Positions 1,435-15,160 of a DNA stretch of 40,292 nt are shown here, piece after piece. Position 1 is the first letter of the stretch, and every line of letters starts with the position of its first letter. Below the pieces are notes generated by a model. That model had not been told where the DNA came from and did not search any database. It saw only the letters and a list, made by a program, of their open reading frames with translations. Origin of the DNA: Cytophagales bacterium (lineage in GTDB: Bacteria; Bacteroidota; Bacteroidia; Cytophagales; MED-G16); assembly GCA_029940715.1 (NCBI GenBank), contig JAPYTU010000003.1, positions 1 through 40,292 on the forward strand, given 5' to 3'. The translations under genes and the position numbers were made by a program.

Positions 1435-1472
1435 TGTAAATGATTAAATTGATTCAATATTTTATCTTAAAA

Positions 1473-2639
1473 ATGAACACATTAAAAATAACATTTATAA
1501 CATTATTTTTTGTACTTTTTAGTGGAAATATTATTTCAAATGATAAATCCAATAAACCAAGAAAACTTTTCTTTCCAAATATTGATGGATACCAAACACT
1601 TATTTCAGATTTACACCAACACACAATTTTTTCTGATGGTTTAGTATGGCCAACTATTCGTGTGGATGAAGCAATATACGATGGAGTAGATGTAATATCA
1701 ATGACAGAGCATTTAGAGTATCAACCCCATAGAGAAGATATTCCAAATAAAGACAGAAATAGAGCATACCACTTAACAAAAAGCTATGCTGATAATTTAA
1801 ATAAAAGAAAAAAAGACGATAAAGAACTAATAGTTATAAATGGTCAAGAAATTACAAAAAGCATGCCTCCAGGACATATAAATGCTGTTTTTATAAATGA
1901 AGCAAATAATTTATTACATAAAGATTCACTTACTGGAATCTTAGAAGCAAATAAACAAGGTGCATTTCTATTTTGGAATCATCCAGCATGGCCAGCTCAA
2001 AGAAGTGATGGAATTGCAAGATTAGATGACTATCATAAATACTTAATATCAAACAAATATTTACATGGAATTGAAGTGGTTAATGAGCTAGATTACTCAG
2101 AAGAAGCTTTTCAAATTGCCATTGATAATAATTTAACAATAATGGGAACTTCTGACATTCACGGACTGATAGATTGGATGTTCAAAATTCCTAAGTATGG
2201 TCACAGGCCTGTAACTTTAATATTTTCAAAATCCAAAAAATTAGAAGATATAAAAAATGCTCTTTTCAATGGAAGAACGGTTATTTATTACAATGATTTA
2301 CTCATTGGTAAAAGTATAAATCTAAAACCACTCATTGAAAAAAGTCTAGAAATATCCATAAAAGGGGAAGTAAATCAAGGTTACTCTGAAGATGGAGAAA
2401 GCTCAATTGTTAATATTGAAATTAAAAATCATTCGAGTGCAGATATTATTTTAGAAAATAATTCTGATTATACATTTGAAAATAATGCTGATATATTTAC
2501 AATAAAAGGGTTAAACTCTATAATTCTTAAAACTAAAGTAGGTAAAAGAAAAATTGAAGATCATTTAAATTTTAAAGTTTTAAATGGAATAATAGCACCA
2601 AAAGAATATCTTAAGATAAAACTAGCAACAGGTACTTAA
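1473..2639 (+). CDS. Secreted PHP-domain phosphoesterase (Sb-PDE-like)
   Basis: DLHQHTIFSDG, TEH, WNHP and SDIH metal-binding motifs. The signal peptide fits a start at M12 (1473) better than 1440. Confidence 0.85.
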   Translation: MNTLKITFITLFFVLFSGNIISNDKSNKPRKLFFPNIDGYQTLISDLHQHTIFSDGLVWPTIRVDEAIYDGVDVISMTEHLEYQPHREDIPNKDRNRAYHLTKSYADNLNKRKKDDKELIVINGQEITKSMPPGHINAVFINEANNLLHKDSLTGILEANKQGAFLFWNHPAWPAQRSDGIARLDDYHKYLISNKYLHGIEVVNELDYSEEAFQIAIDNNLTIMGTSDIHGLIDWMFKIPKYGHRPVTLIFSKSKKLEDIKNALFNGRTVIYYNDLLIGKSINLKPLIEKSLEISIKGEVNQGYSEDGESSIVNIEIKNHSSADIILENNSDYTFENNADIFTIKGLNSIILKTKVGKRKIEDHLNFKVLNGIIAPKEYLKIKLATGT

Positions 2640-2642
2640 ATA

Positions 2643-3557
2643 ATGAATCTTAATGTAAAAAATGAAACAGATACATTGGTATCTGTTGTATTAGGAATAG
2701 CAGAGAATTTAGGCCCCAAACCAACAATAGAAAATTGTATTGATCCAAAAACAAAATTTCATATATTAAACAATACATACCCAAAAGAAGATGACTGCAT
2801 AAAAGAAATTGAAAATTTTAAAAACGTATTAAAAAAACATAATATTAACGTTTTAAGGCCTAAGAATAACATCCAAGCTCTAAATCAAATTTTTACAAGA
2901 GACATATCTTTTGTTGTTGAAAATAAATTATTTATACCTGAAATAATTAAAGAAAGAAATAATGAAAAAAATGGAATAAATTCAATAATTGATAATCTTA
3001 GAAATGATCAAAAAATAATTATACCAAAACATATCAAAATTGAAGGAGGAGACATAATACTTAATGATGAATTCATTTTTATTGGATATACTGAAAATAA
3101 TAAATATGTTAATTTAAAAGTATCTAGAACGAATAAAGAATCCCTTGACTACATACAAGAGCAATTTCCAGATAAAACAATAATTGGTATTAAATTGATA
3201 AAAAATGATAAAGACCCTAAAAATAATATATTACATCTTGACTGTACAATGCAACCAATTGGTAATAAAAAAATAATCATATATGAAAATGGCATTTATG
3301 ATAAAAAAGATAGAGATACAATATATGAGATCTATGGAGAAAAGAATTTAGTAAAAATAAATCAAGAAGAAATGTATGAGGGGTGTTCAAATATTTTTTC
3401 AATCAATAAAAAAACTATCGTTTCTGATACAACATTTACTAGACTAAATGAGGAGCTTGAAAGACTAAATTTTTTAATTGAAAAAGTAAATTATAGAGAA
3501 ATATCAAAATTTGGAGGATTATTTAGATGTAGTACTTTACCATTAGAAAGAAAGTAA
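2643..3557 (+). CDS. Arginine deiminase / dimethylargininase (amidinotransferase superfamily) protein
   Basis: FTRD, EGGD, LHLDC and GGLFRC catalytic motifs all intact. Confidence 0.9.
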   Translation: MNLNVKNETDTLVSVVLGIAENLGPKPTIENCIDPKTKFHILNNTYPKEDDCIKEIENFKNVLKKHNINVLRPKNNIQALNQIFTRDISFVVENKLFIPEIIKERNNEKNGINSIIDNLRNDQKIIIPKHIKIEGGDIILNDEFIFIGYTENNKYVNLKVSRTNKESLDYIQEQFPDKTIIGIKLIKNDKDPKNNILHLDCTMQPIGNKKIIIYENGIYDKKDRDTIYEIYGEKNLVKINQEEMYEGCSNIFSINKKTIVSDTTFTRLNEELERLNFLIEKVNYREISKFGGLFRCSTLPLERK

Positions 3558-3603
3558 TAAATCTACCTAAAATATCATTAAATTAATATAATTTAATATA
3601 TTG

Positions 3604-3627
3604 CAGGATACATTATAGGATACATAA
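3604..3627 (+). repeat. Left copy of a 24-bp direct repeat, CAGGATACATTATAGGATACATAA (tandem AGGATACAT, period 12)
   Basis: 23/24 identical to 4786-4809. Ends immediately before the integrase ATG. Confidence 0.95.
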
Positions 3628-4797
3628 ATGAAAATTCAAATTTGGAGAAGAAAAAATAAAGAAAAAGAAAAATATAATTTATACATCAGATACAGACTAA
3701 GTCAGATAAAAGCAAAAGTTGAAAGCTTAAAATTATGGGAGTGGATTTCACCTAACAATATTAGCCAAAAAGAACATAATTTAAATGTCAAAAGAGCATA
3801 TGAGGAAATTCTTAGGAGAAAAAAAGACGATCTTGAAAATAATAGAAGTAAAATAGATTTTAACAGCAAACAGTCAGATGAATTTGAATTTATTTTTAAA
3901 AAATATTCAAAAATTAAAAATTATAATGCTGTATTTAATTTTCTAAAAAAAATTGACTATAACATAGAAAAGAAAAAAATAAATTCAATCAACAAAACTT
4001 ATTTGAATCAATTAAAATATAAAATAGAAAATAAAATCAAAAATAATAATATAAAAGGAACTACATCTGCAAAATATTGGAATAATTTTAAAAGTGTACT
4101 AATACATTTAAATGATAACGGTATTTGTGACTACCCAAGAGTTGGAGGAATTACTTATAAAAAAGAAAACTCTAAAATTTATACCTTTAATAGTGAAGAA
4201 ATAAAAAAACTTAGAAAATCTACTCCAGAAAAATGGAAAGACTTAAAAAAAGCATTTTTCTTTTCATATAACACGGGACTAAAAATAGGTAAGATTGTAA
4301 AATTAAAATGGAAAAATTTATATAAAACAAATAATGATAAAAAAACAATACATTATTTTAAAATCAATAATAATAATGAGACATTAACAAACTCATTACC
4401 AAAAAATATTAGAAAAATGATTGGAAAAAGAAAATCTAATAATGAATTGGTATTCACATTACCAGAAAAACAATCAAATAGATCAAAAATATTTAGAGAG
4501 TGGTTGAATAAATTAAATATCAATGAAAAGAAAAAATTTAATGATGGAGTAAATAATTATGCAAAAAATTTATATGATAAAACAAAAAATATTTACAAAG
4601 TAGCTTCAGCATTAGGACACAATTCTATCAACAAAACAAAAGAAATTTATAACTATATGGAAAATTATGATTTTCTAGAAAATGAAAATATTATAATAGA
4701 AAATTTAGAAGAAAATATAAATCAAACTAAAAGTAAATCTCTATTTAAAAAAGGTAATCTATTAAGTTATAGAATAAAAAAAAATCAGGATACATGA
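3628..4797 (+). CDS. Tyrosine recombinase/integrase-like protein, catalytic residues degenerate
   Basis: Bacteroidota-type arm-binding-like N-terminus (NLYIRY..ESLKLW) and SAM-like middle region. Box I reads FFFSYNTGLK (R to K), box II reads FNDGVNNYA (HxxR lost), while LGH...T..IY is retained. Confidence 0.85.
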   Translation: MKIQIWRRKNKEKEKYNLYIRYRLSQIKAKVESLKLWEWISPNNISQKEHNLNVKRAYEEILRRKKDDLENNRSKIDFNSKQSDEFEFIFKKYSKIKNYNAVFNFLKKIDYNIEKKKINSINKTYLNQLKYKIENKIKNNNIKGTTSAKYWNNFKSVLIHLNDNGICDYPRVGGITYKKENSKIYTFNSEEIKKLRKSTPEKWKDLKKAFFFSYNTGLKIGKIVKLKWKNLYKTNNDKKTIHYFKINNNNETLTNSLPKNIRKMIGKRKSNNELVFTLPEKQSNRSKIFREWLNKLNINEKKKFNDGVNNYAKNLYDKTKNIYKVASALGHNSINKTKEIYNYMENYDFLENENIIIENLEENINQTKSKSLFKKGNLLSYRIKKNQDT

Positions 4798-4809
4798 TAG
4801 GATACATAA
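4786..4809 (+). repeat. Right copy of the 24-bp direct repeat, CAGGATACATGATAGGATACATAA
   Basis: The single mismatch to the left copy (T to G at 4796) creates the integrase TGA stop at 4795-4797. Confidence 0.95.
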
Positions 4810-4869
4810 TAAGAAAATATAGATTAAATTGATAATAAAGTAATAAATAATAATAGAAAAATAATAAAA

Positions 4870-5811
4870 ATGAACTTTTCACAAATCACATCAAGTTTAA
4901 TAATGGTTAAACCTAAACACTTTAACTATAACAAAGAGACAGCAAATAATAACCATTTTCAAAAAGAAGAAAAAATCTTAAATAAAAATGAGATTCAACT
5001 AAAAGCAATTGAAGAATTTGAAAAAATGGTTGAAATAATTAGAAAAGAAAAAATTGAAATTCATGTTTTTAATGATAGAGATAATATAAAGACAACAGAT
5101 AGTATTTTTCCAAATAATTGGATAACTCTACATGAAGATGGAACGGTCATAATATATCCGATGTTCTCAAAAAATAGAAGAAAGGAAAAAAGAAAAGATT
5201 TAACAGAAAAATTGAAAAATAAAGGATATAATATTAACAAAATTATTGACTTATCAAGTTATGAAAAGAAAAAACAATATCTTGAAGGTACTGGAAGCAT
5301 GATACTTGATAGAAAAAACAAAATATGTTATGCCGCATTATCTAAAAGAACAAATGAAATTGTCTTAAATCAACTCTGTAAACTTATAAATTACAAACTT
5401 TTAAAATTTAAAGCATACCAATCTTATAAAAATAAAAGAAAATTAATATATCACACAAATGTTATGATGTGTTTAGCTGATGAATATGCAATAATATGCT
5501 TAGAAAGTATTGATGATGAAAGTGAAAAAAAATTACTAATTAAAAGTCTAAATAATACCAAAAAACAAATAATTGAAATTTCCGAAGGGCAATGCAAAAA
5601 TTTTGTGGGAAATATGCTTCAAGTAAAAAATAAAAAAAATAACAAATACTTAATTATGAGTGAAACAGCTAATAAAAGTCTCAATTTATCTCAAAAAAAA
5701 TCACTTGAAAAATACAATAAATTATTATACAGTAACATAAAATTAATAGAAAAAATAGGAGGGGGTGGGGCAAGATGCATGATTGCAGAAAACTTTTTAC
5801 AAAAAGAATAA
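4870..5811 (+). CDS. ctlX: Citrulline utilization hydrolase CtlX (amidinotransferase family)
   Basis: MVKP..F.YN.ETA.NN.FQ, DSIFPNNW, LEGTGS, YHTNV and GGGARCM motifs. Confidence 0.85.
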   Translation: MNFSQITSSLIMVKPKHFNYNKETANNNHFQKEEKILNKNEIQLKAIEEFEKMVEIIRKEKIEIHVFNDRDNIKTTDSIFPNNWITLHEDGTVIIYPMFSKNRRKEKRKDLTEKLKNKGYNINKIIDLSSYEKKKQYLEGTGSMILDRKNKICYAALSKRTNEIVLNQLCKLINYKLLKFKAYQSYKNKRKLIYHTNVMMCLADEYAIICLESIDDESEKKLLIKSLNNTKKQIIEISEGQCKNFVGNMLQVKNKKNNKYLIMSETANKSLNLSQKKSLEKYNKLLYSNIKLIEKIGGGGARCMIAENFLQKE

Positions 5812-14996: not shown

Positions 14997-15071
14997 GGGT
15001 TATTAGCTCAGTTGGTTCAGAGCACTGCCTTGACAGGGCAGGGGTCACTGGTTCGAATCCAGTATAACCCA
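14997..15071 (+). tRNA. tRNA-Val(GAC)
   Basis: Acceptor GGGTTAT/ATAACCC, D-stem GCTC/GAGC, anticodon arm CTGCC-TTGACAG-GGCAG and T-arm ACTGG-TTCGAAT-CCAGT. CCA is not encoded. Confidence 0.97.
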
Positions 15072-15160
15072 CTAATTATAATTCATTCTTAACATATTTA
15101 TTATTACTAGTTATGTAATAAAAATAATTTTTTATCTTCATCTAACAAAAATAAAATGAT

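Follow-up and report, generated by a model that had tools for sequence, protein, structure and literature searches.

Integrases of the IntDOT/IntN1 type, which belong to conjugative and mobilizable elements of Bacteroidota, are the closest described relatives of the protein studied here. IntDOT has an N-terminal domain for arm binding and five arm-type sites, and short repeats near the integrase gene are given as a feature of attDOT (PMC2817482). The present study concerns an integrase-derived gene in a 40,292-nucleotide stretch of DNA from a Cytophagales bacterium (hereafter the window). This stretch is contig C99 in an assembly of 1.62 Mb, with 128 contigs, a completeness of 92.7%, and a GC content of 0.276. 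The gene is a single plus-strand open reading frame (ORF) without interruption, closed by a TGA codon at 4795-4797 (Table 1), and it lies between a gene of the ADI/amidinotransferase superfamily (the ADI-like gene) and ctlX. It is kept under purifying selection and is vertically inherited throughout the taxonomic family of its host. We propose, with a probability of about 0.5, that it encodes a domesticated integrase binding its own arm-type-like repeats, probably bridging them, autoregulating itself, and gating transcription into ctlX.

The window protein shares the three-domain layout of the IntDOT/IntN1-type integrases over its residues 1-346, with a likeness to their IntCTnDOT subgroup, in which the first catalytic arginine is weakly conserved (PMC8138268). 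Unlike them, the gene has no surrounding element and is fixed, single copy, and vertically inherited. In the window's clade (clade A below), the His and Arg of the HxxR motif and the beta-hairpin Lys are missing, and the window protein carries an added conserved C-terminal tail. Moreover, no inverted core-type sites were seen around the gene, which is bracketed by two direct, tandem pairs of one 7- to 8-bp motif.

The nearest precedent in print for an inactivated recombinase is TnsF of the Tn6022-like Tn7 transposons, a tyrosine-recombinase derivative that acts as a DNA target selector and has an active relative in Tsy (PMC10293859). Both are bacterial proteins with a recombinase fold; TnsF employs it without catalysis for sequence-specific DNA recognition, which is a candidate role for the window protein, and the second clade of our family (clade B) parallels the Tsy relative. 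However, TnsF has N-terminal zinc fingers, is encoded by a transposon alongside Tns genes, and has comM as its target, whereas the window protein has a beta-sheet N terminus without Cys/His clusters, metabolic genes as neighbors, a gene fixed in the host, and candidate sites flanking that gene. A likeness to the lambda Int intasome lies in the joining of an N-terminal domain for arm-type direct repeats to an oligomerizing recombinase body. Lambda Int, however, bridges arm and core sites in order to recombine, whereas the window gene has no evident core sites and has probably lost catalysis, and the model of its N-terminal domain alone retrieved neither the lambda nor any other arm-binding domain from the PDB.

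Excisable-element switches also have a recombinase gene in a segment that is bounded by direct repeats and interrupts a functional neighborhood (PMC8987985). In these switches the recombinase is active and the element excises, whereas the catalytic residues are replaced in the window's clade and the gene is present in every assembled locus. In the text available to us, the same review, whose subject is mobile-element genes that were exapted, deals with recombinases solely in their active form, namely, Xer and the excisable switches (PMC8987985). From the Xer resolvases, which have two domains and an intact active site, the window protein differs by its extra N-terminal domain and its predicted dead active site. 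In animals, Crypton-derived genes are tyrosine-recombinase genes of mobile elements that were turned into host genes (PMC3212892). They are eukaryotic and belong to an unrelated lineage. To our knowledge, no cognate sites bracket them. Full-text literature searches returned no description of a chromosomal, family-wide dead IntDOT-type integrase with retained flanking sites.

Results

A word-indexed search with the window protein returned 80 proteins, 76 of which form one tight family (41-97% identity, nearly all 375-399 amino acids [aa]), the other four being canonical Bacteroidota integrases at 26-29% identity. Among the 1106 proteins found at E ≤ 0.001 in an exhaustive search of representatives, only three clusters (P0019, P0051, and P0082) are full-length members of this family, and the score drops after them from 271 to 82 bits, the next match being P0095 at 33% identity. 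The comparison of genomes covered 41 related genomes, with 24 other genomes of the same taxonomic family and 16 genomes from 16 other families of the order. Of the 24 family genomes, 22 carry one copy of an ortholog each (E 1e-52 to 1e-224); the two genomes without it are 61% and 84% complete and lack ctlX as well, so that the locus appears simply unassembled there. No ortholog was found in the 16 genomes of the other families, three of which gave weak integrase-level matches.

All 20 orthologs that were fetched are intact ORFs (374-392 aa, ~40-97% identity), the apparent internal stops of the genome search being natural stops, and the same holds for the orthologs in five metagenome loci and in another three genomes of the family, one of which is cut off by the end of its contig. 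The order PHP gene, ADI-like gene, integrase-derived gene, ctlX, and ridA is identical in 20/20 loci, one of them cut by a contig end, and it recurs in the three further genomes and the five metagenome loci. Nei-Gojobori dN/dS (omega) for unsaturated pairs was 0.18, 0.145, 0.149, 0.28, and 0.07, compared with 0.09-0.35 for three neighboring genes in the same pairs. Mean pairwise identity was 0.65 in the arm-binding-like domain and 0.45 in both the core-binding and the catalytic domains, with the tail above and the linker below these values (Table 1). Of the 46 columns that are invariant in the family alignment, 23 fall in the arm-binding-like domain, whose omega is 0.03-0.08 in six of seven pairs. 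This N-terminal domain and the tail are the most constrained parts of the protein.

An earlier note on this DNA, made from the sequence alone, had taken the co-orientation of the gene with its two neighbors and its core-like composition as signs of long residence, and it had proposed checks for orthologs, for synteny with ctlX, and for a dN/dS below 1. Coordinates and strands agree with the co-orientation, the GC content at third codon positions is 0.146 versus 0.13-0.17 in the neighbors, and the orthologs proved to be present, intact, and syntenic with ctlX in every locus examined, with dN/dS values similar to those of housekeeping neighbors. A functionless, decaying remnant of an integrated element would agree with the origin from a mobile-element integrase and with the loss of catalytic residues. 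This simple decay, to which we give next to no credence, is refuted by ORFs intact in all loci, an omega of 0.07-0.28, fixed synteny, and conserved flanking sites, all in genomes of 1.0-1.8 Mb.

The integrase ancestry of the protein is clear at the profile and fold levels. Pfam PF00589 (Phage_integrase) matches residues 189-342 of the window protein with 43.1 bits (cut-off 27.1) and is matched by 29/29 family members. The NCBIfam search of the window protein returned no family, and the PDB sequence search with the single protein returned chance coiled-coil matches only. When the family profile was aligned by hhalign with 21 IntCTnDOT-type integrases, each of which carries PF17293 (Arm-DNA-bind_5), PF13102 (Phage_int_SAM_5), and PF00589, residues 1-346 were covered with a probability of 100 and an E value of 1.9e-45; the first 80 residues alone aligned to the Arm-DNA-bind_5 region of these integrases (probability 95.3, E 2.3e-8). 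The AlphaFold2 (AF2) model of the full protein has a predicted local distance difference test score (pLDDT) of 85.5, and it begins with three strands followed by a long helix (residues 2-70), after which come a middle domain made of helices, a recombinase fold, and a disordered tail. The 38 Foldseek hits listed for this model against the PDB at E ≤ 1e-3 are all tyrosine recombinases, headed by XerH, XerA, IntI4, lambda Int, and Tn1549 Int (E 1.8e-6 to 1e-3), and the match to full-length lambda Int (1z1b_B) covers 369 columns. Taken together, these comparisons confirm a full three-domain architecture of the IntCTnDOT type. The protein is also strongly basic (pI 9.9).

The C-terminal tail is specific to the family, since its motif (Table 1) is not found in canonical integrases, and it occurs once in the genome. 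Its residues F373, K374, and L378 are invariant in the family, and residues 366-389 have a pLDDT below 50 in the AF2 monomer model, i.e., they are disordered. The codons of the tail vary synonymously across the family, including TCA versus AGC/AGT for Ser, which argues that selection keeps the tail as protein. An ESM Atlas search with residues 346-389 gave only unnamed small clusters. The two-copy complex prediction for the full-length protein (alignment A4; score 0.12, mark 0.42) counts neither for nor against self-association.

Catalytic residues were placed with hhalign profile-profile and MAFFT alignments and were counted over 91 distinct family sequences. K219 aligns with Arg-I (TGLK versus TGLR), at a position with K in 72 sequences, R in 16, and N, S, and X in one each. 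N305-D-G-V308 aligns with H-x-x-R and N309 with the His that follows it. At the place of the HxxR His (position 305), N is found in 67 sequences, S in 8, R in 5, D and K in 3 each, A in 2, and V, G, and H in one each, and at the place of Arg-II (position 308) there are 50 V, 40 I, and a single R. D306 is nearly invariant (90/91) and forms a signature of the family. The canonical beta-hairpin Lys aligns with N251, in a column that is variable within the family. The window protein thus does not hold the catalytic pentad R-K-H-R-H with Tyr: what is left is H331, aligned with the second His in LGH (H in 84 sequences, Y in 4, D in 3), and Y341 (Y in 89, F in 2), which is offset by at most one residue from the nucleophile Tyr. 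A Tyr at His+10 is likewise found in P0095 and P0097, the nearest intact relatives. R268 is the sole near-invariant Arg of the catalytic domain; we considered it as a replacement Arg and ruled it out, since it is conserved at the same position in intact outgroups.

In the IntCTnDOT subgroup, Arg-I is weakly conserved, and in IntDOT another Arg, from another position, replaces it (PMC8138268), so that a missing Arg-I is not diagnostic by itself; two intact-looking outgroups (P0079 and P0081) are also without it. On these alignments, it is the loss of both HxxR residues that is decisive for catalytic loss, and the enzyme of the window's clade is most likely unable to cut DNA. The earlier note had described an intact 389-aa frame with arm-binding-like, SAM-like, and catalytic regions, which Pfam, hhalign, Foldseek, and AF2 bear out, and its placements of K219, N305-D-G-V308, H331, and Y341, with no clear beta-hairpin Lys, are reproduced by the alignments. 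Its use of the Arg losses as a mark of inactivity holds for HxxR and fails for Arg-I taken alone. Likewise, the shared loss of these residues that it anticipated is common to the window's clade and does not extend to clade B, which keeps H-D-x-R-H. Decay and an intact canonical catalytic set being excluded for clade A, the selected non-catalytic role put forward in that note is the best reading, and we consider it very probable in the window's clade.

In a quick IQ-TREE tree with a root placed by five outgroups, the family falls into clade A (the window's genus and a large genus, g2; SH-aLRT 99) and clade B (genus g3 together with three loci from metagenomes; SH-aLRT 98). The distinct sequences of clade B, five in number, all retain T-F-H-D-x-R-H-T, LGH, and the Tyr and have Ser or Thr in place of Arg-I, which is an IntDOT-like set, and clade B has the same synteny, both repeat pairs, and the tail. 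Because clade B shares all these features and retains HxxR, fixation, repeats, and tail came first, and HxxR was lost later, on the clade-A stem. The omega of the catalytic domain is 0.13-0.23 in clade B versus 0.16-0.39 in clade A, where a single pair of almost identical sequences gave 0.47; constraint on the domain thus persists in clade A, which shows at most a mild relaxation. Among the 20 orthologs, the start codon is TTG in 11 (loci L007-L017) and ATG in the other 9, aligned with the ATG of the window.

The locus before the arrival of the gene may be represented by three genomes of another family (L029-L031; ctlX 52-53% identical), in which the ADI-like gene lies ~46 bp from ctlX, co-oriented, and the spacer has neither an integrase gene nor a GGATACA motif. 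Since the two genes directly adjoin there, an insertion between them is supported. The surroundings of ctlX in additional families of the order, with 23 loci compared, contained no ADI-like gene within 1.5 kb.

Both ends of the gene carry a tandem pair of the same 8-mer (Table 1), and both pairs sit in a 25-nt direct repeat, CAGGATACAT[T/G]ATAGGATACATAA, which brackets the ORF. The four exact copies of AGGATACA in the window (1.2 expected) are the two plus two at the gene ends. Over the whole genome, these are the only two tandem pairs at ≤1 mismatch, and the single 8-mer is not enriched (47 copies, where equally composed words average 45.9). Apart from these, the genome has one near match to the pair, with two mismatches, at C25:6069-6088 on the minus strand; the reversed control also gave one, so that it is probably due to chance.

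The conservation of the pairs across the family is high. Two GATAC words 12 nt apart are present in 27/27 available 5' regions and 28/28 3' regions of the family loci, and the GGATACA positions are at least 90% conserved versus 50-60% in the flanks (26 distinct sequences). The pattern GGATAC-N6-GGATACA has 44 matches in 25 family genomes, all at the ends of the integrase-derived gene and on its strand; it occurs twice in 21 genomes, once in two (one variant base and one contig end), and not at all in two with an unassembled locus. No match was found elsewhere in the 25 genomes, and the reversed control gave 0. The second 5' repeat ends 2-5 nt before the start codon in all 20 orthologs, and the position of the stop codon, counted from the first GATAC of the 3' pair, ranges from -4 to +33, most often +9 (18/28 loci). 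Since the stop codon drifts around the repeat, what is conserved is the DNA motif and not a "KDT" peptide; a C-terminal KDT(L) peptide motif was considered and dropped, as it is the translated DNA repeat and falls outside the ORF in several loci.

A metagenome scan for the exact tandem pair gave at least 118 loci, in a collection so large that chance alone should produce single pairs. Among the loci listed, five belong to the family and three others lie close to an integrase-like hit, which in two of these is one unrelated integrase type; no such hit accompanies the remainder. In L159 and L160, an unrelated integrase (361 aa, all catalytic residues present) has an exact AGGATACA-N4-AGGATACA just past its 3' end, in the opposite orientation. 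The two are related and count as one occurrence, which may be due to chance or may be the attachment region of that element itself.

Arm-type sites would agree with three features, namely, the direct tandem layout of the repeats, their phasing of 12 bp, and the concentration of constraint in the arm-binding-like domain, and we hold it somewhat more likely than not that the repeats are binding sites of the integrase-derived protein. The same repeats could instead serve another factor, as the operator of another regulator or as an RNA signal in the 5' and 3' untranslated regions, the protein having an unrelated non-catalytic job. The pairs, however, occur only with this gene and are absent from the ADI-ctlX spacer of the gene-less genomes and from the rest of the 25 genomes, the 3' pair does not precede a start codon, and the arm-binding-like domain is the most constrained. 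As for an RNA signal, Rfam gave no match and direct repeats cannot pair together in RNA; yet the second 5' repeat has AGGA 7 nt before the ATG, readable as a ribosome-binding-like element, and contact between protein and repeats is a supposition drawn from their co-occurrence and conservation. We regard a separate factor as unlikely.

The bracketing of the gene also calls for a comparison with nifD and sigK elements. In such a scheme, a working recombinase, alone or with a partner, would excise its own gene as a circle and so fuse the ADI-like gene and ctlX into an operon. The direct repeats bracket the gene exactly, and switches built from immobilized elements are known (PMC8987985); the repeats are, however, direct 8-mers in tandem and differ from core sites, which would be inverted and enclose an overlap region; none of the 23 family genomes with an assembled locus lacks the gene, and no scar with a single pair was found in 25 genomes. 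The contigs of three RNA runs and one DNA run, in which no 3605-4787 joint was seen, drop rare forms and leave several bins uncovered, so that they bear neither on excision nor on relative expression. On the side of the enzyme, 90/91 sequences in the window's clade have Val or Ile for Arg-II, and 90/91 are without the HxxR His, whereas clade B has the IntDOT-type set (Ser/Thr at Arg-I, H-x-x-R-H, His, and Tyr), and Arg-I is supplied from another position in the IntCTnDOT subgroup (PMC8138268). Partners in trans could be two canonical Xer-like recombinases of the genome. Overall such a switch is improbable, and it is possible mainly for clade B. The two Xer-like genes have intact motifs and lie on contigs C58 (L001) and C33 (L004 1180-2216), the latter gene being broken by a run of N (a scaffold gap) and not by mutation.

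Hints of expression come from RNA library X18, in which whole contigs match the gene at 97-98% identity on 3944-4165, 4507-4657, and 4676-4825, the last one crossing the stop codon and the 3' repeats, and also match ctlX. The look into metatranscriptomes that the earlier note had advised thus gave a weak hint, which DNA carry-over could also explain. In flavobacteria, the box of sigma-A promoters, located at -12 to -5, reads TAnnTTTG, and a variant TAnnTTGY exists as well (PMC9723704). A candidate for such a variant, TATATTGC, precedes the 5' pair and weakly suggests a transcription start near 3609, inside the first 5' repeat. The scan showed no plus-strand terminator between the genes, and nothing on 3300-5100 matched Rfam at E ≤ 1. 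In the spacer that separates the 3' repeats from the start of ctlX, the word TTAAATTGAT (4820-4833; also in the L006 and L007 spacers) is common to the window's genus and one g2 genome, not to most others; it may be part of a ctlX promoter.

The features of the locus are collected in Table 1. Downstream of the integrase-derived gene come ctlX, ridA, and gltX, which share their strand with it and with the ADI-like gene. Every NCBIfam match of the ADI-like gene was under its cut-off. Upstream, the ADI-like gene adjoins a gene at 1440-2639 (+) whose product resembles metallohydrolases of the PHP/CehA-McbA type and has an Ig-like DUF5001 domain at its C terminus, and a PHP gene with DUF5001 stands just 5' of the ADI-like gene in 16/20 loci. 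The sole RNA gene detected in the window by Rfam or ARAGORN is a tRNA-Val (GAC) at 14997-15072 (+). Finally, the integrase profile found a match of ~260 residues (E 4.2e-18) in the PDB chain 9i5v_14, which is 401 residues long and is labeled "Ribosome-associated translation inhibitor RaiA"; this means that the label is wrong or else that the entry contains a recombinase-like protein.

Table 1. Features of the integrase-derived gene and its surroundings (positions in the window)
Feature	Position	Strand	Description
ADI/amidinotransferase-superfamily gene, upstream neighbor	2643..3557	+	Pfam PF02274, 35.3 bits; syntenic in all loci
Possible sigma-A-type -7 box variant TATATTGC	3597..3604	+	fits TAnnTTGY; weak candidate
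5' tandem pair AGGATACA-TTAT-AGGATACA	3605..3624	+	12-bp period; ends 3 nt before ATG
Integrase-derived ORF	3628..4797	+	389 aa
Arm-binding-like N-terminal domain, residues 1-75	3628..3852	+	AF2 strands 2-9, 15-23, 29-39, helix 45-70; hhalign
Core-binding (SAM-like) helical domain, residues 76-185	3853..4182	+	hhalign, AF2 helices
Catalytic-fold domain, residues 186-345	4183..4662	+	holds K219, N305-D-G-V308, N309, H331, Y341
Last helix (346-362) and variable linker, residues 346-368	4663..4731	+	AF2 helix; mean identity 0.28
Family-specific conserved tail LFKKGNLLSY(R/K)K, residues 369-382	4732..4773	+	mean identity 0.70
3' tandem pair AGGATACA-TGAT-AGGATACA	4787..4806	+	stop codon inside spacer
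ctlX, citrulline utilization hydrolase, downstream neighbor	4870..5811	+	NCBIfam NF046062, 402.8 bits (cut-off 334); syntenic

Discussion

Our analysis argues for a tyrosine integrase that was fixed between two metabolic genes, and that in one of its two clades is retained by selection after the loss of its catalytic residues. We propose a model in which the protein and the repeats at both ends of its gene are what is left of an integrative element. According to this model, (i) the element would have inserted between the ADI-like gene and ctlX in an ancestor of this family of marine bacteria with small genomes, (ii) nothing would have remained of it but the integrase gene, with one pair of short direct repeats at either end, and (iii) the window's clade would then have lost the HxxR His and Arg, the beta-hairpin Lys, and usually Arg-I. 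In present-day cells, two protomers would occupy each repeat pair, held together by the recombinase-fold body and by the added C-terminal tail, and bridging of the pair at the start with the pair at the stop codon would form a loop of ~1.2 kb. The 5' pair being at or just past the likely transcription start, its occupancy would repress the integrase-derived gene itself, and an occupied 3' pair would gate the transcription that runs into ctlX-ridA.

The strength of this proposal differs between its parts. Binding to the repeats, their bridging, and the regulatory output are what we infer from arrangement and conservation; a control of the gene's own transcription and of that of ctlX is plausible but somewhat doubtful. 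Still more tentative is the full picture of a fossil intasome acting as a gene switch, in which integrase and arm-type sites would have been retained jointly between two genes for the breakdown of arginine/citrulline, the loop would set the level of the protein itself and decide whether transcription passes from the ADI-like gene to ctlX-ridA, and in which clade B may still cut DNA. Among the options offered by the earlier note, a local looping or regulatory factor fits best, because the candidate sites occur only at the two ends of the gene. For the same reason its option of a nucleoid factor, or of any genome-wide regulator, was rejected, the site pair being found at this locus only.

Several observations weigh against this model. 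First, Pfam detected only PF00589 in the 29 family members and neither the arm-binding nor the SAM-like domain in any of them, and the model of the N-terminal domain alone (pLDDT 89.4) had 0 Foldseek hits in the PDB at E ≤ 1e-3; because of the latter result, the assignment of this domain as arm-binding draws on profile homology and not on the fold search. Second, the link between protein and repeats comes from co-occurrence and conservation, and direct repeats around an integrase gene resemble an attL/attR scar as well. Third, a strict promoter box lies ≤32 nt upstream of the first repeat in only 9/27 loci (shuffles: mean 3.5, standard deviation 1.8, maximum 10), and the count of a sigma-70 promoter scan was no higher than in shuffles. 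Moreover, the omega of the catalytic domain is just slightly higher in the clade predicted to be dead, and the H-x-x-R-H, His, and Tyr kept by clade B suggest that catalysis there may have mattered or may still matter. Hence, the selected function need not be the same in clades A and B.

A dead integrase with retained arm-type sites could also act outward, as a decoy or guard that titrates or poisons the integrases of related elements or phages and so shields a small genome, either by dominant-negative mixing of subunits or by occupation of the arm sites of invaders. The recombinase fold, with its subunit contacts, has indeed been selected after the catalytic loss (omega 0.16-0.39), and the genomes are small, PF00589 matching only the integrase-derived gene and the two Xer-like genes in the genome of the window. 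The targets of such a guard, however, were not seen: no related active integrase and no element with the motif pair were found in viral contigs, where a search with the family alignment gave 0 relatives, and the nearest intact relatives, P0095 and P0097, were not refound, with one weak match in genome contigs and none in metagenome contigs. Among the metagenome loci listed with the pair, an integrase lies nearby only in the five family loci and in one unrelated integrase type. A guard would, in addition, leave the bracketing of the gene by the sites unexplained, and we hold this explanation to be very unlikely.

Our study sheds light on a class of genes that is easily overlooked, since dead relatives of recombinases are usually dismissed as decaying prophage remnants, whereas here selection keeps one throughout a bacterial family. 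The conserved sites, found only at this locus in these genomes, and the selected protein make up a compact, directly testable protein-DNA pair. Moreover, clade B retains most catalytic residues at the same locus, so that the order of events can be read and the two forms can be compared. If binding and looping are true, the locus would be a chromosomal case of an integrase and its arm sites reused jointly as a local regulator, and it would caution against annotating such genes as markers of mobile elements. If, beyond this, the reading as a fossil intasome is true, the two clades would offer a natural before-and-after pair for a recombinase becoming a pure DNA-binding regulator.

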